Source: a virus (taxonomy: Duplodnaviria > Caudoviricetes). Taken from it: DNA of 55,148 nucleotides. Each line of letters opens with the position of its first letter. The first letter of the stretch is position 1. The position numbers and the translations under genes are program-made. Under the pieces are notes generated by a model, which did not search any database, was not told the origin of the DNA, and saw only the letters and a program-made list of their open reading frames with translations. Of this stretch, positions 548 through 52,550 are shown piece by piece. The stretch is taken from positions 1-55,148 of IMG/VR virus record IMGVR_UViG_3300032257_000016; one strand, written 5' to 3'.

Positions 548-982
548 CTAAGCGAGCGTCACATCAAGATCGCCAGCAACAAACTTAGGAGCTGGGTCGC
601 CACTATTTACAGTCTTCGCAGCAGTTAATGCGCCGTGCAGCAGCAAGTTGCCGCCGGTTGCAGCATCAAAGATTGCAAAATGCGTAATTGATCCCCAGTT
701 TGCCGTTGGCGCCGGAAATGTAATATCAACAGCATTGTCCGTTAATCCACCGGTTCCAGATGAAGCGCCAGTTGTTCCGCCTTGAGTCGCGTTCCAGTTT
801 GTGTCCAAAGGAGCAAGATTGACGCGAGCATACGAGCCACCCGTTACCTCTGTACCGCCGCCAGAGTCGGAAGGCGCTGCGGTAAACAAAGCGATATGCA
901 GGGCAGTCGGCTTGGTGAAGCCTGCTGTACGAAACAGAAAGTCAATAAGTAAGTTTTCTAAATAGTCTGACATTGCGGCCAT
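548..982 (-). CDS. Virion structural beta-rich subunit (tail/head fibre-associated family), 144 aa
   Basis: MSDYLEN...ALFTAAPSDSGGGTEV.GGSYARV...FPAPTANWG.ITHFAIFDAATGGNLL pattern, common in phage structural modules; GGAGG RBS supports ATG982. Confidence 0.7.
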   Translation of the reverse strand: MAAMSDYLENLLIDFLFRTAGFTKPTALHIALFTAAPSDSGGGTEVTGGSYARVNLAPLDTNWNATQGGTTGASSGTGGLTDNAVDITFPAPTANWGSITHFAIFDAATGGNLLLHGALTAAKTVNSGDPAPKFVAGDLDVTLA

Positions 983-1014
983 GGGTGTACCCTCCATAAA
1001 GGTATGGTTTGGTA

Positions 1015-1026
1015 GCACTCATGCGC
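1015..1026 (-). promoter_or_regulatory. Leader RNA hairpin copy 1, GCGCAUGAGUGC
   Basis: Exact 12-mer also at 48087 and 52539; 32 nt upstream of ATG982. Confidence 0.8.
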
Positions 1027-1047
1027 TGATTAAAAATGAATTAAGCT

Positions 1048-1398
1048 TTATCGTGTAACTTCTTTACTCAAGGTGACTTCACCCTGAAGGATTCTTGTTG
1101 CCTCGCCTGATGAAACGATCTCAATATCATAGAAACCGGACGAGAATGTAAATAACGCGGTAACGGCAGTTGGAATAACTAGCGTTATTTGGCCGTTTAC
1201 AGCATCTGTAATCGTAATGTCATTACCGGTTGCGCTGTCATATTCAGGAGTTGCAGAAGTAATTTTCTTCCTGATCTGCATTCTTGCAGTAAACCCAGTC
1301 AGATTTTTTGCCGCACCTACTGAATCCACATACGAGAACACATGAAGATAAACAGATCCCTGCTGAATGATTAAGTCTTCTTCTTGTACCTCAGACAC
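1048..1398 (-). CDS. Ig-like beta-sandwich virion protein (BppU-N/LtfC-like adaptor)
   Basis: I.QG...NLTG.TARMQIR...G.I.L......T......YDIE......RIL.G.V pattern. Confidence 0.65.
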   Translation of the reverse strand: MSEVQEEDLIIQQGSVYLHVFSYVDSVGAAKNLTGFTARMQIRKKITSATPEYDSATGNDITITDAVNGQITLVIPTAVTALFTFSSGFYDIEIVSSGEATRILQGEVTLSKEVTR

Positions 1399-3565
1399 TG
1401 ACTGGCTCCTCTTCGCTTACAGGCACATAGCCTATGTCTTTAAGAACTTCATCAGCGGCCTCTGCTATCTCAGGATTTGACGCAGCCAGGTCGCCTGCTT
1501 CCATTGCGGCCTTGAGTGCTGAAACCTTCCTGCTAAGTGCTGATGCCTTCTTATCTTCAGTCGAAGCTTCACGCTCTTCAATGACCGATTGTTTATCACG
1601 CTGATCCAGTTCCTTCTCAGCCCTCATTTCTTCTTCACGAGACTCACGCTCCGCCTTCTCTTCTGGCGTTTCACGTTCATCAGGTGCGCTCATGCCGTTA
1701 ATCTTGCGAATCCTTGATACCATCTCGTCTTTTCCGGGGAAGTCCGTCAGTTCAAAGACCATATCAAGCAACTGCAGGCCAACATCACCTGGCATCTTGC
1801 CGATCATGTCCATCATCTGCTCAAACATGGCAACACGAATTGACTCACGGAAATCTTGCGAATCAACAACAAAATCAGCTTTTGTTGCTGTTATATCGTT
1901 AATGTATGACACCTCACCTGTGACCGGATCAATCTCAGGCTCATTCATGGCGAGGAAGTTCATGTTCCCACGTTCACCGACAATGCGAATTTCTTTGCGA
2001 TCGACGATAAACTGCTCGGCCAATGACAATGTAATCTCACCCTGCAGCTGCACTGCGTAACGCAGGTTGTCAAATAACTCAGCTGTAACAACGCTACCTT
2101 CATTTTGCTTGGCAAGAATGGCTTTACCGCTCGCTGCATTTGTTTCAGAGCCAAGATTTTCACCAGTAACACCGGCACCGCTCATTACATAATCGTCATC
2201 ACGCTGCATGAGCATAATATGCTCTTCTGCTAACTGGCGATCTGTATTCATTTCAAACTTAACAAGACTATTGGCCAGCTTTATAACGCCATCGGGTCTA
2301 CTCGCCTCGTCAATAGCTTCATCCCAGTCCTCAACAGCGTTCTTGTCGGCGATAATTTGATTGGTTGATAGGATAAACAGCGCCTTACTGGCTCGTTTAT
2401 TCATGTCTTCCTGGGGATCTCGTGCATTACGAACAGCGCCATAAGGTGCATTATCACGCGAGCGGCGATAACCCCAGACTGGCGTAAACGGGAATCTATT
2501 ATGTTTATATGGTGAACGAATGTTTTGCAGTAAGTGGGTTCCTGCAAAAATAGCGCACCACATGCGCTGAACAAGAGAGTCATGCAGGCTGACAATTTCC
2601 TCAGTCGCCGCTTTATTCATTGTTTCGTCGTTTTCGTCGTAGATATTGCCGTCAAACTGCATGTCTCCGCGCATAATCTTCACGGATTCAGGCTTACGGT
2701 ACCAGCATTCGACAAGTCGTACACGCTCACGCCGGTTATCAGCATTGAACGCATCATCAAAATAGGATCTTCGGCCAACAACACGGCCTTGGTCGTCGGT
2801 TTGCTGATAAATCATAGAGTAATAAAACTCTTCGTCTTCATCAGTACCATAAAGATTATGGCTTACTGCGCTTTCCTCAAGTTCTTCCTTGCGGTCAGGG
2901 AATGAAGCAACAGCATAATCAAGATCAGTCCATTTACTGCGGAATAAGTAACGTGAATCAGACAGATCGCGCTCAACGCCGAGGCTGTCATACCACATAT
3001 TTCTCCAGCTCTCACAGCGAGAAAAGATTAATTCATCCGTTTCATCGTTATGAATTCCATCTTCAAGCCAGCCAACACCGACTTTCACGGAATCTGCAAA
3101 CGCAAGTGACCGATGGAATACCGTCTTATTAACGTCTGAAAGGTATTTAAGCAGCTTTGTCTTGCGACTAGCCGTTTCAACGTCACTTTCTTTTCGTGGA
3201 AATGCGTTAAAATCCACCTTTGTTCTTTTTTCGGTACCAATAATCCAGTCAACAGTCTGCTTGATCTTGTTGAACACCAGAGGTGCCTGGCCACGATCTC
3301 TTAATTCTTGTATATCCTCTTCTGACCACTGAAGACCATCATAAAAATCAGCGTCAGTCGCCATTTGTATTCTATTTTCAGCTTGCACCTGCCTTTCACG
3401 GTTCCACCAGTCCTGCAGCCGCGCCAATAACGCTTTGTTCTCCTCACTATCAAGCGCATGATCCTGGGTCGGTTCAGAAGGATCAGTGGACTCATCAATC
3501 ATCATGTACCGAGAGTCAGGGTCATGATAACCCTTGGTTTTGACGTTTTCGATACTACCCGGCAT
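1391..3565 (-). CDS. Portal protein (P22-like)
   Basis: 724 aa; D.DFYDG.QW, RGQAPLVFN, ASGKAILAKQ.EG motifs; lies downstream of terL. Confidence 0.93.
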   Translation of the reverse strand: MPGSIENVKTKGYHDPDSRYMMIDESTDPSEPTQDHALDSEENKALLARLQDWWNRERQVQAENRIQMATDADFYDGLQWSEEDIQELRDRGQAPLVFNKIKQTVDWIIGTEKRTKVDFNAFPRKESDVETASRKTKLLKYLSDVNKTVFHRSLAFADSVKVGVGWLEDGIHNDETDELIFSRCESWRNMWYDSLGVERDLSDSRYLFRSKWTDLDYAVASFPDRKEELEESAVSHNLYGTDEDEEFYYSMIYQQTDDQGRVVGRRSYFDDAFNADNRRERVRLVECWYRKPESVKIMRGDMQFDGNIYDENDETMNKAATEEIVSLHDSLVQRMWCAIFAGTHLLQNIRSPYKHNRFPFTPVWGYRRSRDNAPYGAVRNARDPQEDMNKRASKALFILSTNQIIADKNAVEDWDEAIDEASRPDGVIKLANSLVKFEMNTDRQLAEEHIMLMQRDDDYVMSGAGVTGENLGSETNAASGKAILAKQNEGSVVTAELFDNLRYAVQLQGEITLSLAEQFIVDRKEIRIVGERGNMNFLAMNEPEIDPVTGEVSYINDITATKADFVVDSQDFRESIRVAMFEQMMDMIGKMPGDVGLQLLDMVFELTDFPGKDEMVSRIRKINGMSAPDERETPEEKAERESREEEMRAEKELDQRDKQSVIEEREASTEDKKASALSRKVSALKAAMEAGDLAASNPEIAEAADEVLKDIGYVPVSEEEPVSV

Positions 3566-3794
3566 GACTGTCTGCCTCAGTTACCCACGCAACAACCAAT
3601 TCTTCGTCTTTATTGAGATAATCAACGTGAGTATATTTAATCTCAACGTGCGGCTCTTCAGCGTCCGGATAATATTGAATGGAATTCAGCTTAGATCCTT
3701 CAGGTATGCCATTCTCAACAAAGGTGGCAGGCAGGTTCCTATTCTGGGTGAATATTTTTTCGAATATTTCAGGCATTAAACGTACAGTAATCAT
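3555..3794 (-). CDS. Hypothetical protein
   Basis: 79-aa ORF coupled to both neighbours. Confidence 0.55.
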   Translation of the reverse strand: MITVRLMPEIFEKIFTQNRNLPATFVENGIPEGSKLNSIQYYPDAEEPHVEIKYTHVDYLNKDEELVVAWVTEADSHAG

Positions 3795-4174
3795 CAGTGA
3801 ACCACCTTTTGACCGCCAATAGAGATCTCAAGACCGTGATTCTCAACAGCCTCTTCAATAAGGTCTTGTGTGCTCTGTTCTTCTTCAGGAACCATCTTGA
3901 TTAGCTCGGGAAGGTAGTTCAGGATAGCGTCAGCGATCTTATAAGCCGCAACCCTTGTGTTTCCAAGGCCAAGAACGTCAGCGGCCTTATACGACTTCAT
4001 GACCAGCGTTTCGCTATCTGCATACTGCCATGCGGAAGACAGGCAAATAACATACGCTCGCTTACGGTTCATGTGACGAGATCCAATGCACATTGCAGGT
4101 TCACCGGATACATGCTGGAAGAATATTCTTAAATCATGCGTCTCGTAAACTGTATTTGGTTTAGTGCCGGACAT
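3794..4174 (-). CDS. Conserved hypothetical protein between terL and portal
   Basis: 126 aa, GAGGG RBS, preceded by a leader-hairpin copy. Confidence 0.7.
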   Translation of the reverse strand: MSGTKPNTVYETHDLRIFFQHVSGEPAMCIGSRHMNRKRAYVICLSSAWQYADSETLVMKSYKAADVLGLGNTRVAAYKIADAILNYLPELIKMVPEEEQSTQDLIEEAVENHGLEISIGGQKVVH

Positions 4175-4200
4175 AATAACCCTCTCGGTTCATCATCCAA

Positions 4201-4212
4201 GCACTCTTGCGC
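4201..4212 (-). promoter_or_regulatory. Leader RNA hairpin copy 2 (variant GCGCAAGAGUGC)
   Basis: 11/12 match to the other three copies; intergenic, 26 nt upstream of ATG4174. Confidence 0.75.
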
Positions 4213-4261
4213 AGCGGAATCGATTGTTTGTTTGAATTGGTGTGAATCAACTAATTATTTT

Positions 4262-4510
4262 TTATGGCTCAATATCAAGATCCGGCCTCAAGCAGATAAG
4301 GTGCTCTTCTGCACACATAAGTTCGTCGTCTGCATCTGCCAGTAGCCCTGCATCGCCATGAAGTCCCGCGTACAGATCTATCGTAGATCTCGCTTCCTGA
4401 ACGTAGTGAATGGCGCACTTAACAGAATAAAAGCCCTTTGTAGCCATGTAGTAACGTGCTTTAAGTTCGAGCCATTTATCATGCAGCCTATATTTTATGC
4501 TGTTCTCCAA
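4262..4510 (-). CDS. Hypothetical protein
   Basis: 82-aa ORF overlapping the end of terL. Confidence 0.5.
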   Translation of the reverse strand: MENSIKYRLHDKWLELKARYYMATKGFYSVKCAIHYVQEARSTIDLYAGLHGDAGLLADADDELMCAEEHLICLRPDLDIEP

Positions 4511-6015
4511 TTTTTCGCCCTCCGCCTGGTTTTACTGGCGCGTTCTGGTGTGAATCCTCGTGCAAATTGCTCAAAGCCGTCATTGCCATGGCTTGCATCA
4601 TTATGTAATGGCGTTTCTTGGAACGCCCCTATCTTGTCATTCCATTGCCGCCTGTAGTGATCCAGGTGCTTAATTCCTAATGCGCATCCCCGTTCATCAA
4701 AATAACACTGAGGAAGTGCGTCACGAACAGCCTGATGCGCTTCGCGCTTGTCTGGAACTCGCGGAACACATACAACCTTGAATCCGAACCCCTCCATGAT
4801 TTCCTTTCGGCTCTTATTGTCCTCCCTTGTCAACTCAACAACTTCACCGTCATGCGGGAAATAAACTGTACCGTAAACATAATCAAGCTGAAGCATGTAT
4901 TTTGCGTAGAACTGGATCGACTCACCGCAGTTTTCATAGTAATGAATGAATCGATACTCCATACCTACGTGCTGCATGAACCAAATCACGTTGAAATCAT
5001 TGCGTCCAAGGTCGAAAAAGGTGTAAACCTTCAGTCTTGGGTCAAATGGTATGTTCAATATGTGATTATTCTTGCGTATCCATGCCATTTGACGGCTGTA
5101 ATACGCGCCAACAATACTCTGCTCGAATGCTTCATCAGGTGTTGACGGATATTCACGCTTCATATCCTCACCCTGCCCCTCAAGCTTCTTCACGTACCAC
5201 GCCTTTTGCTCTGCATCGACCGTAATTCCACTCTTACTTTCTAATTCGTCGAAATACTTTTCATCTTCATCAGTAATAATGATGTTGTCTGGGTCTGTTC
5301 GGTATGATGGGTGTTTCCACCAGGGGAAGAAAAAGAACTTAAAATCAAGTTTCGATAGCTTCTTACCCATCTTGAGTAAGTTCCTGGCTATCTCTGTCAT
5401 GTCAAAGAACTTGCCTTCACGTCCCTCAGCGGTAGACTCAATGAAAATGAAGTGACCTTCATGCACCGCATTAAATGCGCCAGTTACAATCTCACGCGCC
5501 TTTTCCGGGTATTTAGCGCAGATCTTGCCGAATTCACTAACATGCAGGTACTGTAACGTGCCTGAGCGTAGGCTAGTTCCTACCCTGACGCTCGAATTAT
5601 TTGAAAGAAGCAACTCTCCTGCATCATTTTTAACCGCTTTGGGGATTAAATCTCGATATTTATCAGGAATATTATCGTAAGCAAACTTGATTTTATCCCG
5701 GAAAAACACCTGCGCATCATCTTTATTGTGCGCAATAACACCCGCTCGAATATTGTTGTTCCAGATTACCCGATCAAGAATGAATATCTGTATAAACGTA
5801 GTAAAACCAAGCTGGCGAGCTTTAAGTATTGTCGACAGGTACCACATTGTCCGATAAAAGGACTTTTGCGCCCAGTTCATCTTAAACAGAACCTTCTTGC
5901 CCTTCTCATTCGTAATGTAATACAAATGACTGAGCCGCCACTTCTCGTTGCCAATCGTCTTCTTCAGCTCCGCAAGTTCTTTCGGCGTTAGCTCTCTTTC
6001 CTTTTTAGTCGCCAC
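4495..6015 (-). CDS. terL: Terminase large subunit
   Basis: LKARQLGFTT Walker A, LHVSE Walker B, ESTAEG coupling motif, FDLG...SHGND nuclease; GTG6015 is the likely start. Confidence 0.95.
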   Translation of the reverse strand: MATKKERELTPKELAELKKTIGNEKWRLSHLYYITNEKGKKVLFKMNWAQKSFYRTMWYLSTILKARQLGFTTFIQIFILDRVIWNNNIRAGVIAHNKDDAQVFFRDKIKFAYDNIPDKYRDLIPKAVKNDAGELLLSNNSSVRVGTSLRSGTLQYLHVSEFGKICAKYPEKAREIVTGAFNAVHEGHFIFIESTAEGREGKFFDMTEIARNLLKMGKKLSKLDFKFFFFPWWKHPSYRTDPDNIIITDEDEKYFDELESKSGITVDAEQKAWYVKKLEGQGEDMKREYPSTPDEAFEQSIVGAYYSRQMAWIRKNNHILNIPFDPRLKVYTFFDLGRNDFNVIWFMQHVGMEYRFIHYYENCGESIQFYAKYMLQLDYVYGTVYFPHDGEVVELTREDNKSRKEIMEGFGFKVVCVPRVPDKREAHQAVRDALPQCYFDERGCALGIKHLDHYRRQWNDKIGAFQETPLHNDASHGNDGFEQFARGFTPERASKTRRRAKNWRTA

Positions 6016-6589
6016 TCGGAAGACCAAGATTCTTATCAGATATGGCTTCGTACAGATCAAGTAATGTAGTACCAGCTTCGTGCTGCACCTTGTCTGTCAG
6101 TATCTTGAGATACCTGCCTAGTAATTCCTGGGATCTGTTCGCGCCTGACGCATCAAACTTCTTAGTCATCGCCTGAATGGCTTTCCCGTCAATAGTGATC
6201 TGCTCAGGATATTCAACATCGCCGAGGCACCTGGCCAATATCTTCAGCTGATCTTTTAGCCATTGAGTCTGGTCATATTGAATGTCTTCAATGATCTCAG
6301 CCAGTCGCACGTCGATATACGCGCAAATTTCAGGCTTCTTTAGTAGATTACAGCCACCTACTCGCGCCGCATTGTCTGTTTTGCACGTTTTAAACGTCTT
6401 TCGGTATGCCTCACTCGCGTCGCGCTTGGGATCTGCAAGGTATAAGTCAGCAAACATTTGGTAATTGTCAGTAAGTCCATGCTCATTTACTGACTGCCGA
6501 CCTCGGGTTTTTGCTGTTTTCGTCTTCGAGGACGCTCTTTTCTTAGCCGGGGCTTTCTTCTTGGCCGATACTTTCTTCTTTGTGGTCAT
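6005..6589 (-). CDS. terS: Terminase small subunit with Lys/Ala-rich N-terminal tail
   Basis: LT....FADLYL.....A.EAY...A....LLK.PEI..YI HTH and FDASGANRSQELLGRYL; directly upstream of terL. Confidence 0.88.
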   Translation of the reverse strand: MTTKKKVSAKKKAPAKKRASSKTKTAKTRGRQSVNEHGLTDNYQMFADLYLADPKRDASEAYRKTFKTCKTDNAARVGGCNLLKKPEICAYIDVRLAEIIEDIQYDQTQWLKDQLKILARCLGDVEYPEQITIDGKAIQAMTKKFDASGANRSQELLGRYLKILTDKVQHEAGTTLLDLYEAISDKNLGLPSGD

Positions 6590-10028: not shown

Positions 10029-10274
10029 CTAATACGATCCCTTCAAATACATAATCAAGTGCTTTCGTACATCAGCAAGATTGCACGAGTCATCCCATAC
10101 GCCAATAAGATCAGGATCTTTATTGCGAATCCGCTTCATTGTCTCGACGGTATTTGCAAACTTTGCATCAAGCAATAAAGCGCCCGTGCTGCGATCACTG
10201 AAAACGGCAATCTCTGATCCACCTCTTGCCGATTTTATTCTGTCAATAATTACTTCAACTGTTCCAATAGACAT
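10029..10274 (-). CDS. Hypothetical protein
   Basis: 81-aa ORF in operon frame. Confidence 0.6.
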   Translation of the reverse strand: MSIGTVEVIIDRIKSARGGSEIAVFSDRSTGALLLDAKFANTVETMKRIRNKDPDLIGVWDDSCNLADVRKHLIMYLKGSY

Positions 10275-13754: not shown

Positions 13755-14583
13755 CACAGACCCCCGCTTCAACAATAACCTCGTTATTATTTGCCCATGA
13801 TTCAGCAACATCATGGTTATGGTCAGCGACCGCTCTATCTGGATCTGGTTGAACTGGAAGCGACCACTCCTGCAACCAAGGGGCTTCGTCCCCTACACCA
13901 AAAAATCGAGATCCCTGCATGACAAATTCTGTGTTTATTTTTTCTGTTGCCTCGCAGTAAGCTAAATATCTACTTACAGCAGATAGAAGGTCATCAATAC
14001 TAGCGCCTTCTTTTTGCCTTGCGCTCCATGATGCGTATGTCCCTTTTTTGTTTCTGTCTCCGGCTCTATGTGGGTATATTTCCCAAACAAGTGAAAATGC
14101 AGGATGATAATCTGAGGTTTTATTTTTTTTGTGCGTTGACGCATTCGCGTCAATATCCTTTCCCTTTCCTTTTCCTTTTCCTTTTCCTTTTCCTTTTCCT
14201 TTTCCTTTTCCTTCCTGAGAATTACCGTCGTCTAACAGGTCATTAACCGTTAAGCCTGCGTCTTTATTTGGAATGACGCTTGCTTTTTCTGTGTGATGTG
14301 GACGCTGATGCTCTGTAAATGATGGAATTGAAAGGTATTTCTTATTATCGACCTTATAAATTACTATGTGGCCACTTTCCTTTAATTCGTCAATACAAGC
14401 GTCAAACTTATCCATTTCGTAAGGCATGCACTGAGCTGCAAGCGCGACACGCTGAAACTTCATTTTCCCCTCACGATCCGAGTGACACCAGAGAGCGACG
14501 TAAAGCAACCGTGAGTTAACCGTTAATTCACCGATCTCTTCTGACATAAAAAATTCAGGTTTTATTGTGCGTATCCTACTCAT
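13744..14583 (-). CDS. Phage replication initiator protein
   Basis: MSRIRTIKPEFF N-terminus, D.EG, F..HQ, (GK)n linker, F...W..YP C-terminal domain. Confidence 0.88.
   Translation of the reverse strand: MSRIRTIKPEFFMSEEIGELTVNSRLLYVALWCHSDREGKMKFQRVALAAQCMPYEMDKFDACIDELKESGHIVIYKVDNKKYLSIPSFTEHQRPHHTEKASVIPNKDAGLTVNDLLDDGNSQEGKGKGKGKGKGKGKGKGKDIDANASTHKKNKTSDYHPAFSLVWEIYPHRAGDRNKKGTYASWSARQKEGASIDDLLSAVSRYLAYCEATEKINTEFVMQGSRFFGVGDEAPWLQEWSLPVQPDPDRAVADHNHDVAESWANNNEVIVEAGVCDEQ
14120..14213. repeat. (GGAAAA)n hexamer tract plus palindrome and T-tract inside the initiator gene; likely origin region
   Basis: About 9 TTTTCC units at 14157-14213; TTGACGC-attc-GCGTCAA at 14136-14153; T-run at about 14118-14130. 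Confidence 0.6.
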
Positions 14584-16119: not shown

Positions 16120-16154
16120 GTGGTCGTGTATTTAATTTAAGCAGGAGCTTAATC

Positions 16155-16925
16155 ATGACCAAAGAAATAGCTACATTCAGCCTCACCCCAAGCAATCTAA
16201 ATGAAGCCATGCAGTTCTCAGAAATGATCGCTGCATCCTCCCTTGTACCAAGAGACTTTAAAAATAAACCTGGTGACACCCTTGTAGCGATACAAATGGG
16301 CAGCGAACTTGGTCTTCCTCCTATGCAGGCACTTCAGAATATAGCCGTGATTAATGGCCGGCCATGCGTCTGGGGTGATGCTCTTCCCGCTCTGGCAAAA
16401 AATCACCCTAAATACGAAAAGATGGAAGAGACTTTTGACGAAAGCACGATGACAGCGACGTGCGTTATTAAGCGTAAAGGCGAAAAAGCTGAAGTAAGAA
16501 CATTCTCACAGGCTGACGCACAAGTAGCTGGCTTATGGAATAAAGAAGGTACCTGGAAAAAGTACCCAAAGCGCATGCTTCAAATGCGAGCCAGATCATT
16601 CGCTATTCGAGATGTATTCCCCGACGCACTAAAAGGCCTGTATGTGGCTGAAGATGCTCTTGATATTCCAGAGAAGGACATGGGTGAAGCTGAGCGCGTT
16701 GAAGAACCAGCGGTTGCTGAAGAGCAGACACTTCCTGAAGAGCAGATACTTCCTGCCTACACAGACGAACAAATTGACGAGAATGAAGAGTCATTCAAGC
16801 AAATGTTCGCTGCAAGCAAAAGCAGTCCCGAGCACATGATTGGAATGATTAGCTCAAAATACTCAATGACTGAAAAGCAGATAACCCGAATAAATGAAAT
16901 GGCACCCAATGGAGAAGTAGCATGA
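16155..16925 (+). CDS. recT: RecT-family single-strand annealing protein
   Basis: G.ELGL.PMQALQNIAVINGRP..WGD, W.KYPKRMLQMRAR.FA.RD.FPD.L.G. Confidence 0.9.
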   Translation: MTKEIATFSLTPSNLNEAMQFSEMIAASSLVPRDFKNKPGDTLVAIQMGSELGLPPMQALQNIAVINGRPCVWGDALPALAKNHPKYEKMEETFDESTMTATCVIKRKGEKAEVRTFSQADAQVAGLWNKEGTWKKYPKRMLQMRARSFAIRDVFPDALKGLYVAEDALDIPEKDMGEAERVEEPAVAEEQTLPEEQILPAYTDEQIDENEESFKQMFAASKSSPEHMIGMISSKYSMTEKQITRINEMAPNGEVA

Positions 16926-25099: not shown

Positions 25100-25329
25100 T
25101 ATTTCACCTGCTCTATTAACGAATCATGCCTATCTCGGCACTCACGGTAAGTCCGGCCAATATCCTTGGCGTTCTGTATTAATGAATGGCTGGTACCATC
25201 AACGGGTACCGGCAGCGATCTATCGCACGGAGCCAGAAGGATCTGGGATGGCTTCGCCTGCAAGGGCTTCACGGTATAGCCGCAACCCGATAGGATTAAG
25301 GCACTCATGATTAGGATTATTTTTGACAT
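25099..25329 (-). CDS. o-spanin (Rz1-like lipoprotein)
   Basis: Lipobox LILSGC, LLAPC...P, EC..RH..L; overlaps the 3' end of the i-spanin. Confidence 0.85.
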   Translation of the reverse strand: MSKIILIMSALILSGCGYTVKPLQAKPSQILLAPCDRSLPVPVDGTSHSLIQNAKDIGRTYRECRDRHDSLIEQVK

Positions 25330-38600: not shown

Positions 38601-41351
38601 AGCCGAAATAAAATTATCATCGAATACGGATTCGTCAGGCTTCCCGCTTGCATGAGTAACATGATTAATCAGCGCAACACGGTCTTTATGCTCTTTATCA
38701 ATAGCCAGGCCGAGTTCATCATGCAGATAATCCTCAGTCACCTTTAATATTGACTCTTTCAGTTTGGCCTCGTCCTTGGCATTACTAATTACCTCAGTAT
38801 TGGCCACGGCATGCTTAATAGACTCTTTTTTGATAGCCAGAATGTCTTTTTTCTTGAATTTTGGCTTCTCAGGCTTATTCGTTTTTTCCTTTTCAGGAAT
38901 CGTCGCTTCCGGAGCACTGTCTTTACCTGAAGCACTGTTAATCCATGCCTTCGCATCTTCCTCTGTTTTTGCAATGTACGCAGGATCACCATTGTCGTCG
39001 TTTAAGTCGTAAACATACCAGCCGCCTTCTTCTTCGCCAGCCGGTGATTCGCCATAAGCATAGTCACCAACTCTGGTGTAATCATCGGGAATCGTCGCTT
39101 CCGGAGCACTGTCTTTGTCATCACTTCTTGAAATAGGCTCTGCGTTTCCATCTTCGATAATATTGCCTTCGCTATCCTGCCAAGTATCAGCCTGAGCCTC
39201 CCCATCTTCCGTATATGCAATGACTTTTGTTCCGTCAGTGAGTTCATGTGTTGGCGTGAAGTCGGCATCTGTCACCGGCTCATTGGTAGAATAGTTATCA
39301 GCAATATACTTGCGAATACTCGCAGCTGCTTCTTCTGCCTGCTTTTTAACAAACTGACTTCGTGCAGCTTTAGCGGTCTGTTCTAACTGAGACGCTATTG
39401 ATGTCAATTCATCAACGTCATTAATGGATTTATCAGCTGCATCAAGAAAACCTTTAACCTTTTTATTTATTTTCCCGACAGGGCGCTTGATCCCAGTTCC
39501 TGTGTCATTTTCATCTTCATCTCGATAAATATGATATTCACCGTGCCTTCTTTCGTTGGCACCAAGCTGAACAGCTGACTCATTTATAAAAGATTGAACT
39601 GTATTATCAACTGGATCACCGTTATAGCCGTTCTTGTAATTCTTTATGAATGATTTCACCTCGTCATCATTAAGGTCTACACCACCATCATTCGTGGCAA
39701 CATGAATGGCCTGCTGAATACCAGATACGGCCTCGTCTGTAAGGTCATTTGTCAAGTCATGAGGAAGCTTATATTTTTTAATATCAGGTTTTGACTCAGG
39801 CTCAACTGGATCAGGAGCGACTGGATCAACTGGCTCAGGAGGAATGATAGGCTCAACTGGATCAGCTGCTTGTGGATTAGTTAGGTCACGCCGACCATCG
39901 GTTACTTTTTCAACATTACTGGAAAAATCAGGACGAGACAGCCCTTGACTACCAGGAATACCATCAACAAGCGTTCTACGTGGAGGAGGTAAGACCGGAT
40001 CACCTGTATTAGCAAGACCCGCCGCCTGACCTGCTTTTTCAGCCGCTTTGGCCATGGTTCCTTTTGGTGTTATACCCTCAACGCCTGACCCGGTAAATCC
40101 GGCAGAATCATGCTGACGATACTGCTCTGAATAATTCTGCTGTTCAGGTGTTTTAGTAGCGCCATCAGCGGTACCATAAAAATCAGGCGGAGCGGTTAAT
40201 TGTGGTGCATTTGGGTCGAATACTCGTTCTTTCCCCATCTCAGCGGCAAGATTATCGAGGCTGTAGTCACCGGGAGCCGTATTATTTTCATCAATAGAGT
40301 CATTATTGTTACCCAGATAACTTGATACACCACCTGCAACTCCACCCATTCCCACACCGGCAAGCATGCCCATGGCGGCGCCTTCAGGTACGCCATCCAT
40401 GATAGGCTTACCCATGGCGACGTTAGACCACATTTGCTCTTGAATTGACTGAGGCAGTTCCTCAAAAACACCCTCAGATATTCCTGACTCAACGAAGCTT
40501 CTGGCTACACTCTTGTTAGTTGCTTTAAGTCCACCTGTTGCAAGCATGGTGTCAATATCAGCAATTCCGAATTTCTGCGCAATTCTTCCGCCAACAACAC
40601 CAAACACACCTGTTCCAAGTCCAGACGCGCCTGCAGCAGCAGACTGTTTATCTGTCAGAAGCCCGTCTTTCGTATTTTGTCTTGTCTGTTCGGCAGCCAT
40701 TCCAGCGCCAACAATGCCTTCACCTGTGGCGCCTGCAACATAGCCTGGGACTTTCGGCGCTAGTTTTGTCAATCCCCTTGCTATCACGCCTCCACTTAAC
40801 ATGGGAGCAATCGACTCGCCGACTGTGTGGGCTATCGTGCTTGGGTTTTCAAGTGCTGCCACTACGGTTGGAACAAACCCTTTTGCAGCAGCGACCTTGG
40901 CGTTGGCTTCTTTTTGCGCATCGGTGTACCAAGTGTTTAATGTTTCTTTGGCGTCTTTTGGTCTAAACCCAAGATGATCTTCTGCATACTTTCCTGCCCT
41001 GCCACCAGAAAAAAGGTCAGCAATACCTAGCGCGACCTCTGGAACTGATATTGCGCTCTTGATAGCGGTTACGCCTGCGTCACTTATCGTTCCAATAACT
41101 CCACGCTCTTTTTCTGGCTTCGCCGAGTTAGTAAGATGGTCATAGTTAATTTTTGGGCGAGTTAATCTACGCGCCTTTACAGAGGCTTTTGCCATGGTTG
41201 ATGGCTTATCAGGAGTTGGAGCAACAAATTGATTATACTGGGGTAGTTTAAGAGGTAGTGGCTTGCTTTCGGTTGGGGTAGCGTTAATTTCTTCTATTCC
41301 GTCAGCAGGATTCACTGGCGCACCCTTAATTAAATGGTCATACATTCCCAT
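26631..41351 (-). CDS. Giant DarB-like polyvalent (probably injected) protein: LPD1-like HExxH domain, N6-adenine MTase, strawberry-notch-type SF2 helicase, zincin-like domain, PLxRFG and C-terminal region
   Basis: 4906 aa; AHEWFHALD/ELFARA, QAYSTP/EPTAGNG/NPPFG, GDQTGVGKG/DESH/SAT/GRVNRTGQ, LHETLAH/AEEV, IEEVQS/PDAPF, PLMRFG. Confidence 0.9.
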   Translation of the reverse strand: MGMYDHLIKGAPVNPADGIEEINATPTESKPLPLKLPQYNQFVAPTPDKPSTMAKASVKARRLTRPKINYDHLTNSAKPEKERGVIGTISDAGVTAIKSAISVPEVALGIADLFSGGRAGKYAEDHLGFRPKDAKETLNTWYTDAQKEANAKVAAAKGFVPTVVAALENPSTIAHTVGESIAPMLSGGVIARGLTKLAPKVPGYVAGATGEGIVGAGMAAEQTRQNTKDGLLTDKQSAAAGASGLGTGVFGVVGGRIAQKFGIADIDTMLATGGLKATNKSVARSFVESGISEGVFEELPQSIQEQMWSNVAMGKPIMDGVPEGAAMGMLAGVGMGGVAGGVSSYLGNNNDSIDENNTAPGDYSLDNLAAEMGKERVFDPNAPQLTAPPDFYGTADGATKTPEQQNYSEQYRQHDSAGFTGSGVEGITPKGTMAKAAEKAGQAAGLANTGDPVLPPPRRTLVDGIPGSQGLSRPDFSSNVEKVTDGRRDLTNPQAADPVEPIIPPEPVDPVAPDPVEPESKPDIKKYKLPHDLTNDLTDEAVSGIQQAIHVATNDGGVDLNDDEVKSFIKNYKNGYNGDPVDNTVQSFINESAVQLGANERRHGEYHIYRDEDENDTGTGIKRPVGKINKKVKGFLDAADKSINDVDELTSIASQLEQTAKAARSQFVKKQAEEAAASIRKYIADNYSTNEPVTDADFTPTHELTDGTKVIAYTEDGEAQADTWQDSEGNIIEDGNAEPISRSDDKDSAPEATIPDDYTRVGDYAYGESPAGEEEGGWYVYDLNDDNGDPAYIAKTEEDAKAWINSASGKDSAPEATIPEKEKTNKPEKPKFKKKDILAIKKESIKHAVANTEVISNAKDEAKLKESILKVTEDYLHDELGLAIDKEHKDRVALINHVTHASGKPDESVFDDNFISAVSRKAKAAFNKAEKEKRKAENADRGEKLKNYGEELRRAQDEATRKIDDADDANLDKAVKDILNAASRPNVFPIVTGENATLGLTGYLETIRNGIEPVSEWIGHQFGGGRRSWQKSFKTVISEKSRKDGGLDEIKELAKEYIDHVSAIAQAVSGKDNIRSAAESFGDYLDKVRASFIDVFRGNFYHQSYALRIDPDGNRYDPGYNLGELLKNEDSESSTGRRKPLRRPSLPIKRSGFKTDHRNGEDVTLEDIGKKFGFAAVTGGKYVRSKEGQERANFAYDAFMDLADTLGIKPKDISLGGTLHFTIGALGRGRHSAHYSPSHPHPKGGTVPVINVTKTRGDGSVAHEWFHALDYALRSSLLSDNQSSIVSDIVDALSERIKTIDGIKKELHPYLTGNRYWYIKGRKHSRYSPNESTRMALRRLSLTKQTDYKNDADEIEKGGNKKRPYWNNREELFARAGESYIYDVLTGDENTYLVSDWVEADKIGKPLYKGRPYPNSKERKAMQDLFAGLMENITFDSKGVSVNSDYESADIKTQVTKLRLKVEGMIDAWIKAIRDEKSREEDDLSIGILGGNDLIRKLYRAIYDGSMPKDNNALKKLVAEHDGVPVKDIDHARLKQAQEDLEAAIVMRSRAIIKDHSEFRGGKSEQVGDKMIFESLLGLYNSQPNLNLQTTASANNQAYSTPAPLAFLAARLSDTKNSDWIYEPTAGNGMLLIDSDLRSSVFANELDADRNSRLKDTLPYASVSNFDATTHEFSYDKKFESIITNPPFGSLAEKTEFDGYTLEKIDHLIAAKALSEMSDTGKATLILGANKNEGAITSKDRVFLNYLYSHYNVTEHFEVSGDMYKRQGAGWPVRIIAIDGRKSSTKKAPKSGAIKRVNSYEELYRKYQEIQGYEFEALDTQPEGFTGETGVDGGGNTGESGGTESSGLPGDPGKPNTGSGRAGGSRPGNENSGGQSGSGVSATGTTNSGSGNGDSGSNAGDGVSSGAGNEGTNGERTGNSGSADSPTDAGNDSTGVFEPDLNAADFSEEDFDSLLDAEFGKDEQSTDDAENEFGDAINDLDDLFGKDGIKFSKRKDFNEETYQKAQPLFKQALEHALSSAASLKEAFKSFIKMASERWGKTIRPYLKQFQQDIKAGIVKIVSPSKKSPEKPNKSNKKESTGSEFQTSYPSMSENTSGNVLVPTNQADAVQAALSDIVAKYGNIDDFVVNELGYKSKDEAFDALMGLQIDSVAMAIDQIKTGGALIIGDQTGVGKGRQAAAVIRWALINGFTPVFISVKPTLYTDMFYDLKDIGSDITPLLTNAGEAVIEHGTKKALFKQTAGKLKPIFSKIINEKSLPKGTDALFTTYAQINTENQRRDVLRSLASNAVFVLDESHNAAGDSSTGEFIKAVLEQSDRAVYLSATYAKRPSNMPVYFLTDISKATDTMEELVESVVSGGVPLMEMVSNQLTRAGQFIRRERSWEGIDLPTYIDPDKKSQQRDEEYSNEVTRRLRAIVDADRIFHNKDFELVKAEIEAEFGGSATGSGNNASAGVHHANFTSVVHNSISQMILSIKTDRIADMAIEGLKAGKKPFIAIDATMGSFLDDHVAFNKLKEGDLLTGFDYRVVLSRNLKRTRNISYKDDKGKKNSIIVPLHQLSQEAQNAYEWAQDLIDSLDADLSASPIDRIKQRIQDAGYSVKEITGRTRSVTYDDKGNAILSSIDKEEKGGRVNTISEFNNGTLDVVIANAAGATGISAHASEKFQDQRPRYMIVGQASLDINIFMQMLGRVNRTGQVVLPEYRIFSSSLPSEKRPQAVTAMKMKQLNANTSSNESSDTSVEAVDFMNKYGDEVVARYLDENKELNAFLQIGFDLDGETPSVQNVARNATGRLALMPVKIQAEFYDRVESEYLDYIKYLNENGRNELIARTIPFDAVLLEEHVLDEGTDNSRPLLSDAMIGKYSVKRTNLPPTPQEVKKEIERSLDGKTASEHAMNLLAPALEYNDKTLVPEINKNISESYSKLSDEDKEKVGAEGNSFPFDDNLSARQHSYQRAVTRKQRHDESVAQIIGAIEKNYLIGNASSHTIDGAHYRGVVTGVKSKWTKGSPSNPFVKSGYSITIRTNSGTGRISLPLSRLMGYQDLGHYGYGGVTQESDIDALFKKAAGHSANDREIRYIATKNLLKAFGSLTSKGEIARFTMKDGSVTDGIVMPGNFDPSTGIKKTLRFGSPAVAIQFLHDNTYDSDVHRLGLHTKDGNLRLTPNYDGSFNLVAAGSKKAGGKWWANTELVSIIGDEFAGSRAVKTAKVPSNKVKSVVDFIYQTDKLFALESMEKLVAPYISKGNSAPDGKPSFSKHSVSANNNRSGGVTEQELQDVIERFKQELGGKLGLDFIIADSQEAAFGEYGASITERVRGAYISARSNKQRSRVIVIRGNLRNIAEAESTLLHETLAHHGLNLFEKDVKTAILRKIHNSRELPAIKKVYRQLIRDGYDLSPAGMAEEVFAYIAENKPNFAIRAWDQIVTIIANALRKYGLLSGKVTKSELRNLVQSIAEGMRQGQQQRTFEDGKEIHFGASDPVFYSKMLDHLIDKLPGSGNAMQLREMVKSWARKGQFKQEELEWSGLVEWLSEQKGKVSKDDIVNFVQANQVQIHETERGESLFRTPMEAKQYLAAQENMSIDEIEKQYAYVNQDAYIEAAEDAAEYEEEKPSYATKHDRYQLKGGKNYRELVMSMPGQIDPYKPDNVHFSEEGGGTAVAWTRFNERTDVDGNRVLHIEEVQSKRHQDGKRDGYAKTETVYIVKNPKGGMEKTVRSIEEGERVIANRRFPDLDNAEDWTIEPKEYPAGAPDAPFKTTWPMLAMKRMIRYAAENGFDRITWTTGDQQSARYDLSSHISNISWDRVSGSSESESALYDITAYKKNSEIALEEHGVNQKRIAVVIGKDLAKSIASDEGSEGVISGTEMKVGGEGMAAFYDKMLPNMVNKYTKKWGVKVGETSITTRKGSGKRLEILSELAGEDVYDASVDEKVHSLDITDKMRDSALSGQPLFSKKTGKEANNPLSSGNVGENDYNSNYEQSSIAGNGGQKSETDTRSPGGDRAQAASGTRTDGRSIPDASVHDEATGFDEDLAGVRFSKKRAEKIRPDTNAFFQAIKDFIAGTKGSLGKDGKILNEVTEKYGFWSKHLGTLDNLARKNPIIEPFMKMAKRMQMDKDEVFAKTNDVVKAYHKLKDDQRKLVDEALFDGTLHERDNGMGIVWRDDQLRDRGLDDTGIAGYHEVRAYFDEMTNDYQNRLLERIGVVLVNGKPETIISGDPSGKVKLDLANKILSDFNKLSGYFPLMRFGNFTLSQYNAEGELVKFETFESLIGRNAAAGKAQRENPENNFKVGRLVKRTGDSMVVDPRMISMLKDYADSAEEAGISDFVDEVEQKMLKEFADKSFRKRFIHRKGTAGYSDDVARTIASYGWSSSNFLAKMKWVPKLQEFQRNLDVKEYPQLHEHISKDIEYLKTPSEEFAAFKSFTFGAYMGFNVKSAAVNLTQIPMTLYPYLANKYGDKKTLAALTQATQDALNPKKVKDRRLRELLQWAEDEGLTMDSYTSDLIGVARGKKLARTRLQSRLIESMTFMFSAAEQYNRRVSVATAYYLNKDVSIEELKKQNGIIEQAVTKTQFDYGKHNRPAVFRGIVGVPLQFHQFSLNYLQFLAGNGGGVGATVRSLAVLFLLAGLMGMPGADDLRALLEFMYQKTTGKHLDFELEARKGIVKLAAEFTSQENAQTIAEAMLRGHVAYTPFDMTGSLSMGRVVPGMSRGFDVAANEGVKKGFTEAATDALGAGAGLVRNVAKGFDQYEASGDIIRGLETALPWKAVGNMLKSYRLTTDGVDRDYAGRVRIAFEPSSAEKLFQFLSFQPSTRSQLYREKNTQRREALFLRAAHNRLIIPLAVAIAEKNEAKKKAARRAIAEWNKSSPKEWRLLMSKVFRAIRRRRKEFEINSKTGRGSSVKQLQGKFNDQSKYFPK
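38896..39116. repeat. Perfect 29-bp direct repeat within the giant gene
   Basis: GGAATCGTCGCTTCCGGAGCACTGTCTTT at 38896-38924 and 39088-39116 (KDSAPEATIP twice). Confidence 0.9.
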
Positions 41352-47474: not shown

Positions 47475-47477
47475 TTA

Positions 47478-48062
47478 TTATGCGCTTGCAATGTTAATCG
47501 AATAGCCGACAAGGAATACATCGCCTGACTTTAATATCCTTGCTGCTGGGAAATTACTTACAGACATAAGCAAACCTGCCGCGCCACCTTTCTGCGAACT
47601 TGATATTAAAAACGCGCCAAGAACAGTTTGATCGGCGCTCATTGTGTAGATAGATCGGCTTGCAGTATTGGTAATTGACTGACCAGAAGGAGCCGCTTCG
47701 TTCCATACTGGGCGAGTGGTTTCAGTATAACTTGAGGTTTCTACTGCATTTGCGGCAATATTTGCAGCAACTTCACCAGCGATCGGCGTATAAGTCCCTG
47801 TGTAAATACCGATATACCATGCAGGAATCTTGGTACCATCATTAAATCCAACGCTCAGCAGATGATCCAGACCCTCATTAACAACTTTGTTATGTGATTG
47901 ACCTGACGAGATTAATTGGCCGCCTCGGTAATGCTCATAATCAAAAACGCCACCAATAGTAATATTCTGCTCTGGTATCAGTATTTCGCCACCAGGCATT
48001 TTCTCATATCGATTGTTTACAAGAGATCGTTTAATTCCTGAAGTAATTTCAGACGCAGACAT
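47478..48062 (-). CDS. Virion structural beta-rich subunit
   Basis: HN.VVNEGLDHLL, WYIGI..G, ITN.AS...Y......TV.GAFL; GGAGG RBS. Confidence 0.7.
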   Translation of the reverse strand: MSASEITSGIKRSLVNNRYEKMPGGEILIPEQNITIGGVFDYEHYRGGQLISSGQSHNKVVNEGLDHLLSVGFNDGTKIPAWYIGIYTGTYTPIAGEVAANIAANAVETSSYTETTRPVWNEAAPSGQSITNTASRSIYTMSADQTVLGAFLISSSQKGGAAGLLMSVSNFPAARILKSGDVFLVGYSINIASA

Positions 48063-48086
48063 TTAGCACCTCCAGCGGTGATTAAT

Positions 48087-48098
48087 GCACTCATGCGC
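48087..48098 (-). promoter_or_regulatory. Leader RNA hairpin copy 3, GCGCAUGAGUGC
   Basis: Exact 12-mer, 24 nt upstream of ATG48062. Confidence 0.8.
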
Positions 48099-48122
48099 AT
48101 GAAAATAATTGTGATTGTAAAA

Positions 48123-50092: not shown

Positions 50093-50104
50093 AGGATTAC
50101 CTCG

Positions 50105-50797: not shown

Positions 50798-50826
50798 AAT
50801 ATTAATCCTCCATTGGATTAGTTAAG

Positions 50827-50857
50827 AAAAACGGGGAGCGGCAAGATTACCGCTCCC
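50827..50857 (-). terminator. Intrinsic terminator after the decoration gene
   Basis: GGGAGCGG-taatcttg-CCGCTCCC-CGTTTTT. Confidence 0.8.
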
Positions 50858-50878
50858 AAAGTCCACACCAAGGACGAA

Positions 50879-51334: not shown

Positions 51335-51361
51335 TTTGTTTTTACCTCAAATTAAATAATT

Positions 51362-51390
51362 AAAACGAAGGGGTGCATAAAACACCCCTT
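51362..51390 (-). terminator. Hairpin/terminator after the major capsid gene
   Basis: AAGGGGTG-ttttatg-CACCCCTT-CGTTTT. Confidence 0.7.
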
Positions 51391-51406
51391 TATTTTTTAG
51401 CTATGA

Positions 51407-52510
51407 TTAGCCAGGATCTTTCGCTGCAGTTTCTGCGGCAATAACACCGAAGTCCTTGCCGTTGTAAGTAGTCTTCTTCACACCGACGATAGAAGAAGTC
51501 GTAATTACAGCCTGATTGCCGTTATCACGAGTTTCTTCATGCCAGTCGTAACGAAGATTGGTACCAGGAGAGCCAAACGCACAAACACCGGCCTGAGCAC
51601 CAAGGAACAGAGCGCGAGACGCTTCAACATTTGAGCCAGCGCCATAGTCATTGAAGCGCACAATACCCTTGTGAGAATGCAGTACAACATTGTTGTACAT
51701 ACCCAGAGCGCCACGGAAGATTGGATTCTTTCGTCCTTCGGCACCTGCAGCAGCTTTTTGAATATCAAGCCATTGACCAGCTGAAGTGTTTGTGCGCATG
51801 TCGAATTCCTGCCATGGATTCATAACCAGACAGTAATGCTCTTCACCATCGACCATCACAGGCTGGATCTGAGGAATTTCAGTAGTACCACCACCCATCA
51901 TAGTCGCACGAGCAACACAGCGATCGACAAGATTAACATCCATTTTGTCGGTTGCGGCAATCGAAGCTTTTGATGTAGCGGAGCCAGCATACAAGATATG
52001 ATCTGTATCTGGAGCAGTCAGGCTATTATTTGCAAAACCTGAGTACGTTGTCGGGAAAATGTAATCCGTGTTGATTCCACGCGCACCAGACAGGTACATG
52101 AAGAACAACTCGTCAAATACACGCGCCCACCATTCAGACTGACGTTTTTTAGCAATCTTGCGCAGGTCATGAAGTGTACGCTTGCGAGTCATGCGACCGC
52201 CAGTATTAACACCACCACGCAGCTGATCGATATAAACACCGTCAGTGTAGAACTTCAGATCTTCCTCGTTTCCATCCAGAGTGTTATCACCCTCAACAGG
52301 CTGCATCTTGAGCTGAACAGACAGATCAAACGAAATGTATTCACCTGCATCATTCTCAAGATGGTTCAGCATCTGGATAGGTGTGCTTGCTTCTTCACCG
52401 TAGCCCATGAACTTCTTAGTGAAGTATGATTTACGGCCAACATCGACTGCCAGTGCGGCAGACCATTTATTTACTGCTTTTGCATCATTTAAACCTATAA
52501 TGGTCTTCAT
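51407..52510 (-). CDS. Major capsid protein (N4-gp56/DUF4043 family)
   Basis: L.GNEEDL.FY.D...IDQ.R, GG.M..KRT..DLR, NPIF.G.LG.Y..V, LGAQA, KDFGVI. Confidence 0.93.
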   Translation of the reverse strand: MKTIIGLNDAKAVNKWSAALAVDVGRKSYFTKKFMGYGEEASTPIQMLNHLENDAGEYISFDLSVQLKMQPVEGDNTLDGNEEDLKFYTDGVYIDQLRGGVNTGGRMTRKRTLHDLRKIAKKRQSEWWARVFDELFFMYLSGARGINTDYIFPTTYSGFANNSLTAPDTDHILYAGSATSKASIAATDKMDVNLVDRCVARATMMGGGTTEIPQIQPVMVDGEEHYCLVMNPWQEFDMRTNTSAGQWLDIQKAAAGAEGRKNPIFRGALGMYNNVVLHSHKGIVRFNDYGAGSNVEASRALFLGAQAGVCAFGSPGTNLRYDWHEETRDNGNQAVITTSSIVGVKKTTYNGKDFGVIAAETAAKDPG

Positions 52511-52538
52511 GTGTGCTTACCTCTATTTTCAAAGTAAG

Positions 52539-52550
52539 GCACTCATGCGC
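52539..52550 (-). promoter_or_regulatory. Leader RNA hairpin copy 4, GCGCAUGAGUGC
   Basis: Exact 12-mer, 28 nt upstream of the MCP ATG; preceded by a second hairpin GATATGC-gggt-GCATATC (52563-52580). Confidence 0.8.

Follow-up and report, generated by a model that had tools for sequence, protein, structure and literature searches.

The 55,148-base IMG/VR record IMGVR_UViG_3300032257_000016 (hereafter the window, meaning the whole stretch at its full length), which comes from an uncultured podophage and is ~77% complete, carries a small RNA hairpin in the leader of its major capsid protein (MCP) gene and in the leaders of three other genes, encoding proteins of 194, 126 and 144 amino acids (aa). 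The sequence that forms this hairpin (P1) is also predicted to enter a longer helix (P2) that encloses the ribosome-binding site (RBS), and the gene next to the MCP gene encodes a 60-aa protein that is a divergent homolog of CsrA. Taken together, these features amount to a two-state leader of the capsid gene that is conserved and associated with CsrA, and that has been expanded to four genes in the window phage. We propose that the CsrA-like protein captures P1, prevents P2 and in this way activates translation, much as CsrA activates ymdA (PMC7492729) and Com of phage Mu activates mom (PMC6483171), a proposal to which we give about an even chance of being correct.

The motif of 12 nucleotides (nt), GCGCAWGAGTGC, has four copies on the minus strand and none on the plus strand across the whole window, and the reversed control has no match. 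All four lie between genes, with 21-31 nt separating the end of the motif from the start codon of the MCP, 194-aa, 126-aa or 144-aa gene (Table 1). The hairpin that it can form, P1, has a stem of 4-6 base pairs (bp) (GCGC/GUGC; core G-C, C-G, G-U, C-G) and a loop of AUGA or AAGA. A covariance model trained on 46 hairpins of relatives, with the window left out, recovers precisely these four copies (19.3-23.3 bits), and the next match in the window scores 11.5 bits. Looser searches say less: a motif search with up to two mismatches gave 9 matches against 4.35 expected, a number reached in 2 of 100 shuffles and thus uninformative, and a loose hairpin scan (CANGAG, at least 4 bp) gave 9 minus-strand hairpins, where shuffles average 3.26 ± 1.78 and reach 9 at most, which is not decisive alone. 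Rfam 15 gave no match at gathering score across the whole window.

The minimum free energy (MFE) folds of all four leaders have the motif as one strand of the longer RBS-enclosing helix, P2, and never in the P1 form. In the MCP leader, the motif loop, the 3' arm and the next 7 nt pair with the Shine-Dalgarno sequence (SD; AGAGGU, 52524-52519), the spacer and the AUG (52510-52508), and the motif of the 144-aa leader is paired to the spacer, to the AUG (982-980) and to codons 2-3. The 194-aa leader has its AUG paired (unpaired probability 0.02) and its SD, GGAGG, in and beside the loop (0.55-0.60 unpaired), and the 126-aa leader, whose motif has its 3' half paired to codons 4-5, leaves the SD and AUG unpaired at 0.51 and 0.55, respectively. 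Shuffled sequences fold as well in 1/200 cases for MCP, 5/200 for the 144-aa gene, 3/200 for the 126-aa gene and 41/200 for the 194-aa gene. When the 63 gene starts of the window are ranked by mean unpaired probability over positions -14 to +3, MCP is the most occluded (0.13) and the 144-aa gene is second (0.19), and the 126-aa and 194-aa genes rank 23rd (0.46) and 35th (0.52). The motif 3' half complements its own RBS better than background in the same two leading genes, with only 1 of 62 other starts as good for MCP and 4 of 62 for the 144-aa gene; the motif partner in the 126-aa leader, codons 4-5, falls outside the region scored in this test. The closing pair of P1 has a probability of at most 0.013 in the free ensemble of all four leaders, and enforcing P1 costs 3.3, 2.2, 3.5 and 4.8 kcal/mol in the MCP, 194-aa, 126-aa and 144-aa leaders, respectively. 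With P1 enforced, the accessibility of the AUG rises from 0.01 to 0.89 in the MCP leader, from 0.02 to 0.36 in the 194-aa leader and from 0.05 to 0.40 in the 144-aa leader.

These predicted folds suggest that sequestration of the RBS in the default state is strong for the MCP and 144-aa genes, partial (AUG only) for the 194-aa gene and weak for the 126-aa gene. P1 and P2 are predicted to be mutually exclusive in the four leaders and in the relatives, because the motif loop and 3' arm are common to both. A preliminary description of the same DNA held that each motif copy abuts an RBS-sequestering hairpin and that the leaders are off by default. The four downstream hairpins that it quoted are all present in the minus-strand sequence where it placed them, and its account of sequestration fits the MCP and 144-aa genes; it went too far for the 194-aa gene, at which only the AUG is closed, and for the 126-aa gene, at which the RBS is about half open. 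Default closure, for which the very low P1 probabilities also speak, has to be narrowed in the same way at the 126-aa leader. The motif itself had been placed within the RBS helix only at MCP, which was too restrictive since it lies there in all four MFE folds. Folding with the motif stem constrained, a comparison that the same description had suggested, opens the AUG in three leaders and leaves that of the 126-aa leader as it was.

Table 1. Coordinates of the genes and RNA elements in the window. Bits in the P1 rows are covariance-model scores; fold z-scores are from 200 shuffles per leader.
Feature	Position	Strand	Details
P1 copy 1, MCP leader	52538..52551	minus	5-bp stem, loop AUGA; ends 27 nt before MCP AUG; 22.7 bits
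P1 copy 2, 194-aa leader	48085..48100	minus	6-bp stem, loop AUGA; 21.7 bits
P1 copy 3, 126-aa leader	4201..4212	minus	4-bp stem, loop AAGA; 19.3 bits
P1 copy 4, 144-aa leader	1014..1027	minus	5-bp stem, loop AUGA; 23.3 bits
P2 of MCP leader	52508..52547	minus	MFE -16.4 kcal/mol, z = -3.25; SD and AUG unpaired 0.01 each
RBS-enclosing fold of 194-aa leader	48050..48101	minus	z = -0.81; contains the previously described hairpin 48087-48060
Long irregular helix of 126-aa leader	4163..4205	minus	z = -2.53; encloses the previously described hairpin 4196-4173
P2 of 144-aa leader	975..1026	minus	MFE -19.3 kcal/mol, z = -2.09; encloses the previously described inner hairpin
60-aa gene, divergent CsrA-family protein	52591..52773	minus	Pfam CsrA (PF02599) E = 0.0021, 18.4 bits vs cut-off 27
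MCP gene, 367 aa	51407..52510	minus	PF13252 E = 1.7e-58
194-aa gene, directly after head-closure gene	47478..48062	minus	phrog_8123 (unknown function), E = 3e-38
126-aa gene, between terminase large subunit and portal genes	3794..4174	minus	
144-aa gp80-like head or fiber protein gene, start ATG at 982	548..982	minus	PF23140 E = 3.7e-46; phrog_240 'head protein'
Portal gene	1391-3565	minus	
Terminase large subunit gene	4495-6060	minus	

A scan of IMG/VR with the MCP turned up 599 candidate stretches and, among them, 598 relatives, of which the 80 best loci were carried forward; two of them (L040 and L086) had no upstream sequence and were dropped, and the remaining 78 loci together with the window yielded 63 distinct leaders. 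A P1-type hairpin lies 15-45 nt before the MCP start in 41 of these 63 leaders including the window, or in 40 of 62 without it. The inner four pairs of P1 were required by the selection and the outer pairs were not. The outer pair 6-20 is paired in 32 of the 40 leaders with five pair types (GC 17, CG 9, AU 3, UG 2 and GU 1), and pair 7-19 is GC in 35, UA in 4 and AU in 1. The covariation score of P1 is 0.283 vs 0.108 ± 0.018 in shuffled data (0 of 500 shuffles reach it), slid partners give 0.04-0.12, and the RNAalifold consensus structure of the MCP leaders is P1. These comparisons indicate that P1 is a real conserved hairpin in MCP leaders. Because its second pair is G-U in 35 of the 40 sequences, P1 can fold in the sense strand only, which argues for an element of RNA rather than of double-stranded DNA. 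The loops of the relatives are AUGA, AAGA, AGGA and ACGA, with UGGAU, UAGGAA and AGGAC in more distant ones, a series that, to judge from the sequences, represents the A(N)GGA-in-loop theme of CsrA sites, shortened in the window. Several leaders carry another P1 upstream of the first. At least two hairpins are found in 13 of the 63 leaders, which should be taken as an upper bound since this looser scan allows any closing pair and includes some chance matches. Run on the records of 15 relatives, the covariance model finds a match at the MCP leader in 8. Extra model matches in Klebsiella phage LASTA, Erwinia phage Pavtok and one further relative (G008) were set aside as chance, being located inside coding sequence. 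One other relative (L196, genome G010) has at 10107-10130 on the minus strand a P1-like hairpin (19.2 bits) whose loop AUG is the start of a 91-aa open reading frame (ORF); this may be chance in a GC-rich genome.

P2 is also predicted to recur among the relatives. By the criterion of at least four base pairs joining the motif 3' half to positions -14 to +5, 35 of 41 leaders have P2 as their MFE structure; shuffling everything downstream of the motif lowers this share to 17.6%. When P1 is imposed on these 41 leaders, the average cost is 5.8 kcal/mol, and mean accessibility rises from 0.28 to 0.44 at the SD and from 0.29 to 0.48 at the AUG. The duplex energy with the phage's own RBS is -15.9 kcal/mol vs -11.7 kcal/mol with the RBSs of other phages, and the variable flank taken by itself gives -6.0 vs -4.15 kcal/mol; none of 5000 permutations was as good in either comparison. 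These results indicate that the complementarity underlying P2 is phage-specific, conserved and co-varying. On a MAFFT alignment P2 is 70% paired, vs 20-39% for slid partners, and shows little covariation because of register shifts between sequences; the spacing between the P2 arms varies among relatives, and per-sequence folds and permutation tests were used for P2 in place of an alignment count. Among the isolates, the leader of Ralstonia phage GP4 pairs GGAGUGUG with CACACUCC between the SD and the AUG and has its SD in a bulge of a long hairpin, and in the Pseudomonas phage Skulduggery leader a 12-bp helix extends into the SD. The leaders of Pavtok and LASTA each form one long irregular hairpin that pairs the spacer before the AUG, with the SD in a small internal loop; a description of these two leaders as having a free SD was rejected, since it is true of the SD letters alone and the flanking spacer is paired. 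GP4 (L202) carries an extra 95-aa ORF at 1909-2196, between its csrA gene and the MCP leader, with P1 (AGGA loop) and P2 still present.

The 60-aa protein is, by profile comparison, a divergent CsrA homolog: PF02599 is matched by 23 of 36 of its relatives, and a profile of these 36 relatives matches RsmE/CsrA structures with E = 3e-8 to 1e-3. RNA binding by the protein is plausible on account of this family membership. A homodimer model scores 0.49 vs 0.01 for the best control, a score that may reflect likeness to solved CsrA dimers; three runs share at least 96% of contacts and the predicted local distance difference test value is at least 71. The modeled dimer is intertwined with beta-1/beta-4 contacts as in CsrA, with beta-1 lying against residues 32-37 of the partner chain. 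The relatives of the 60-aa protein mostly have K or R before the VGE motif, and no residue of the CsrA-like proteins tracks the variable loop letter N. A CsrA-like gene lies upstream of MCP in 65 of the 80 loci, plus 2 more by six-frame search, and the gene at this place is annotated as CsrA-like in Pavtok, LASTA and GP4. In the window, the stop of the upstream 282-aa gene is followed after 1 nt by the start of the 60-aa gene, whose own stop is 40 nt short of P1 and 80 nt short of the MCP start. We propose from this arrangement that it is translationally coupled to the 282-aa gene, which may be a scaffold gene by position only; with the two so closely joined, the level of the 60-aa protein would follow that gene.

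The gene and the hairpin tend to occur together. Among the 62 distinct leaders of relatives, 39 have both the CsrA-like gene and P1, 16 the gene only, 1 P1 only and 6 neither (P = 0.006, Fisher's exact test, not corrected for phylogeny), and many of the 16 leaders with the gene only carry variant GGA loops. The RBS of MCP is also less accessible in loci that combine the CsrA-like gene with P1 (0.27, n = 40) than in those lacking the gene (0.42, n = 7; P = 0.02, one-sided Mann-Whitney test). These observations could be explained by a three-strand, attenuator-like RNA switch, in which the motif 5' arm and the motif 3' arm would be the first two strands and the RBS the third. The motif halves could pair mutually to form P1, an A-N-G-A tetraloop closed by C-G, or the motif 3' half and its flank could instead close over the SD, spacer and start codon as P2. 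Since P2 is predicted to win at equilibrium, the RBS would be closed by default and MCP, the gene that needs the highest output, would be shut, so that an opening factor would be required. Coupling by a terminating ribosome is unlikely to be this factor because of the distances from the 60-aa stop to the MCP start and to P1. The CsrA-like protein is the obvious candidate, because it is a homolog of hairpin-loop binders, is encoded next door, co-occurs with P1 and has its start 1 nt after the 282-aa stop. It might bind the P1 loop and stem, or the motif strand, during transcription, and P1 held in this way would block P2, expose the RBS and activate translation. The preliminary description had likewise suggested that a protein bound to the motif hairpin opens or bypasses the inhibitory stem on a long polycistronic mRNA; the fold predictions, the conservation of both structures and the CsrA homology lend this partial support. 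Both the binding of P1 by the protein and the direction of its effect, activation rather than repression, are what we infer from these patterns.

Several observations weigh against this proposal. The canonical RNA-binding residues of CsrA are a basic beta-1 (LTRR) and R44; the window protein has the acidic VELEE in place of the former and a lysine aligned with the latter, and the AUGA and AAGA loops of the window are without the GGA that canonical CsrA needs. Support from folding is uneven among the four leaders: the 194-aa leader folds no better than its shuffles (z = -0.81), the AUG of the 126-aa leader stays as before when P1 is enforced (0.55 to 0.56), and the motif-RBS complementarity is at background for both the 194-aa gene (30/62) and the 126-aa gene (23/62). 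In 6 of the 41 leaders, moreover, P1 and not P2 is the MFE structure. The closest complete relative (G001) has P1 at MCP only, without the three other copies, and P1 is present in none of 60 unique upstream regions of gp80-like genes from other phage groups (79 of 80 loci used; L125 dropped as incomplete). Since G001 carries P1 only at MCP, the MCP gene is probably the ancestral target, and the gp80-like gene would be a recurrent second target: in another relative (G003), two tandem P1 hairpins lie before its own 144-aa gp80-like gene, the proximal one being drawn into a P2 over the SD and start, which counts in favor of the proposal. The copies before the 194-aa and 126-aa genes appear, as far as seen among the relatives examined, to be specific to the window lineage. 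From published work, knock-down of a csrA homolog in the E. coli phage PTXU04 is described as merely shrinking plaques (PMC11879866), and this tells against the proposal because a phage deprived of an activator on which MCP synthesis depends should suffer more, though the knock-down was partial and PTXU04 may not be close kin of this clade. The proteomic data given for JC1 include one CsrA peptide in virions (PMC9144972), a hint of a different, early role.

Repression in the classical CsrA manner is an alternative that we consider rather unlikely. A dimer on the P1 loop would reach a second site at the SD, block the ribosome and limit or delay MCP synthesis, and P2 would be secondary. Repression is the usual mode of CsrA according to the account in PMC7492729, the SDs of the four leaders contain GGAG or GAGG, and the AGGA, UGGAU and UAGGAA loops of many relatives have the canonical GGA-in-loop form; the SD of GP4 is bulged out of its long hairpin, and in the 6 of 41 leaders with P1 as the default the RBS is often open. 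In the window, however, the RBS is already closed and P1 has a probability of at most 0.013, so that a P1-dependent repressor would be idle and MCP would never be made. Repression would also leave the conserved, co-varying P2 without a role, and where a leader has two P1 hairpins, both faces of the protein dimer would be occupied without the SD, leaving no free face for it.

The leader structures might instead act without the 60-aa protein, as hairpins that stabilize or process the mRNA (for example, by ribonuclease cleavage that frees the RBS) or as targets of host factors. That each leader forms a long irregular hairpin is consistent with such a role, as are the terminator-like hairpins after MCP and the next gene, which suggest segmental decay or processing of the mRNA, and the MCP copy of P1, alone of the four, is flagged as weakly terminator-like. 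We nevertheless think this rather unlikely: the A-N-G-A loop and its closing C-G are retained across changing stems, as would suit a reader that recognizes sequence, P1 tends to be found together with the CsrA-like gene, and no Rfam family was matched; host CsrA in particular is an unlikely reader because the window loops have no GGA. An element acting in DNA, such as a late promoter or an operator of inverted repeats, is very improbable in spite of the palindrome-like sequence and its intergenic location upstream of genes. The G-U pair in 35 of 40 sequences restricts folding to the sense strand, the stems covary rather than keep their sequence, and the distance between the P2 arms varies. No sigma-70-like promoter is found at any copy, and promoter-like sites number 9 and 5 in two regions vs shuffle means of 11.8 and 11.1, none adjacent to the copies.

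Activation of this kind has parallels in known systems. The Com protein of phage Mu opens an inhibitory structure in the mom leader by binding a leader hairpin, and the arrangement proposed here resembles it in that a small phage protein would, by acting on a leader hairpin, free the start of a late gene from inhibitory folding; Com differs from the window protein in being a zinc-finger protein, outside the CsrA family, that acts on one target rather than on a capsid regulon. In Bacillus subtilis, CsrA represses flagellin (hag) through a leader hairpin and the SD, and FliW relieves this repression. The window phage is alike in having a CsrA-like gene beside the gene of a very high-copy structural subunit, whose translation would be controlled through a leader hairpin, but the hag circuit represses whereas the logic of the window RNAs points to activation. 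One could speculate about an assembly-coupled feedback loop analogous to FliW-CsrA-flagellin, in which the CsrA-like protein, set by its coupling to the scaffold gene and possibly bound by capsid, scaffold or procapsid, would gate translation of MCP and the head-fiber protein by the state of capsid assembly, with a specificity shifted from GGA to A-N-G-A that would insulate it from the host Csr system. The single CsrA peptide in JC1 virions hints at such a loop, which we regard as quite unlikely; no FliW was seen among the neighboring ORFs scanned, a scan that did not cover all neighbors and included no dedicated FliW search.

The closest parallel within the CsrA family may be ymdA of E. coli, which CsrA is described as activating by destabilizing an SD-sequestering hairpin (PMC7492729). 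As reported there, a protein of the same family has its sites on the 5' side of an RBS-sequestering hairpin and activates by destabilizing it; the window protein differs in being phage-encoded and divergent, its candidate site is a 4-nt A-N-G-A loop and not GGA, and its target would be the adjoining capsid gene of the phage itself. Recognition of A(N)GGA hairpins by RsmE/CsrA (PDB 2jpp and relatives, matched by the profile) shares with P1 the closing C-G, the leading A, the free N and the G..A of the loop, and true AGGA loops occur in the relatives of the window, as in RsmE/CsrA sites. Unlike those sites, the window loops have 4 nt without GGA, and the beta-1 and R44-equivalent residues of the protein differ.

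Phage csrA genes themselves have been described before. The csrA genes of Bcep22-like, Lessievirus and GP4-like phages, described as 'moron' genes (PMC9144972, PMC10269572, PMC7366521), belong to the same family and occupy the same place upstream of MCP, and csrA is listed in Bcep22-like, GP4-like, PEp14, Pavtok and SopranoGao phages (PMC7366521). Where two of these reports discuss function, the gene is presented as a host-directed moron upstream of the capsid gene with role unknown (PMC9144972, PMC10269572), and its role in the phage cycle is stated to have been previously untested in PMC11879866. Chromosomal csrA is mentioned as absent from some hosts, namely Burkholderia (PMC7366521), and such csrA-less hosts fit a phage-internal target of phage csrA. 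No paper connecting phage CsrA with a leader hairpin of a capsid gene, or with capsid translation, came up in our literature search.

By its sequence the window phage is a Bcep22/GP4/LASTA-like podophage, with morphogenesis genes akin to those of Erwinia phages Pavtok and PEp14, LASTA, GP4 and Skulduggery; the top isolate identity for its MCP is 54.8%. Transcription on the minus strand runs at the left end from the terminase large subunit gene through the 126-aa gene and portal to the 144-aa gp80-like gene, and across the record ends from the 282-aa gene through the 60-aa gene, MCP, several virion protein genes, head-closure and the 194-aa gene to a gene for a 4906-aa polyvalent protein. The morphogenesis module is thus split by the record ends, with terminase and portal at 1391-6060 and the 282-aa, CsrA-like and MCP genes at 51407-55148 (both minus strand), and extra genes lie between portal and the 282-aa gene when compared with LASTA and Pavtok. 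The 4906-aa ORF (26631-41351, minus strand) has LPD1 and Strawberry-notch-type helicase domains, as a large polyvalent DarB-like protein of the kind found in Bcep22-like phages. Terminator-like hairpins with U-runs are located on the minus strand after MCP (51368-51390), after the next, 151-aa gene (50834-50857) and before the 282-aa gene (53651-53671), which suggests a segmented late transcript. The start of the 144-aa gene at 982 is supported by an N-terminus common to its relatives. The preliminary description took the four targets to be high-copy virion proteins, and of the four only MCP and the gp80-like head protein are plausible as such. Neither the 194-aa nor the 126-aa protein has a known function, and no relatives of either were found in IMG/VR.

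Some further hairpins in the window deserve mention. A 6-bp hairpin on the plus strand (16137-16152) has an AGGA tetraloop that is the SD of a 256-aa gene starting at 16155, which is the 7th most occluded of the 63 starts; the covariance model gives this hairpin 8.7 bits. On the minus strand, a weak P1-like hairpin at 13861-13878 (AGGA loop, 7 pairs with G-U; 8.7 bits, not significant) lies within an upstream ORF; 47 nt separate it from position 13814, where a 224-aa gene begins, and this start ranks 4th among the 63 for occlusion. A partial match to the motif and its flank at 25297-25329 (minus strand) falls in the early codons of a 76-aa ORF with a lipoprotein-signal-peptide-like start; it forms no hairpin and is probably due to chance. 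A 7-bp hairpin with a GGGU loop (52563-52580, minus strand) sits between the CsrA-like stop codon and the P1 of MCP, with no U-run after it.

In genome papers on Burkholderia, Ralstonia, Erwinia and Klebsiella phages, csrA is annotated as a host-directed moron of unknown role. The two-state MCP leader next door, seen in 40 of 62 distinct leaders of relatives and in several isolates, offers phage csrA a concrete and conserved candidate target. If the proposed switch is true, these phages would encode a translational activator of the CsrA family with altered loop specificity, and their capsid leaders would provide an example of post-transcriptional gating of capsid synthesis.

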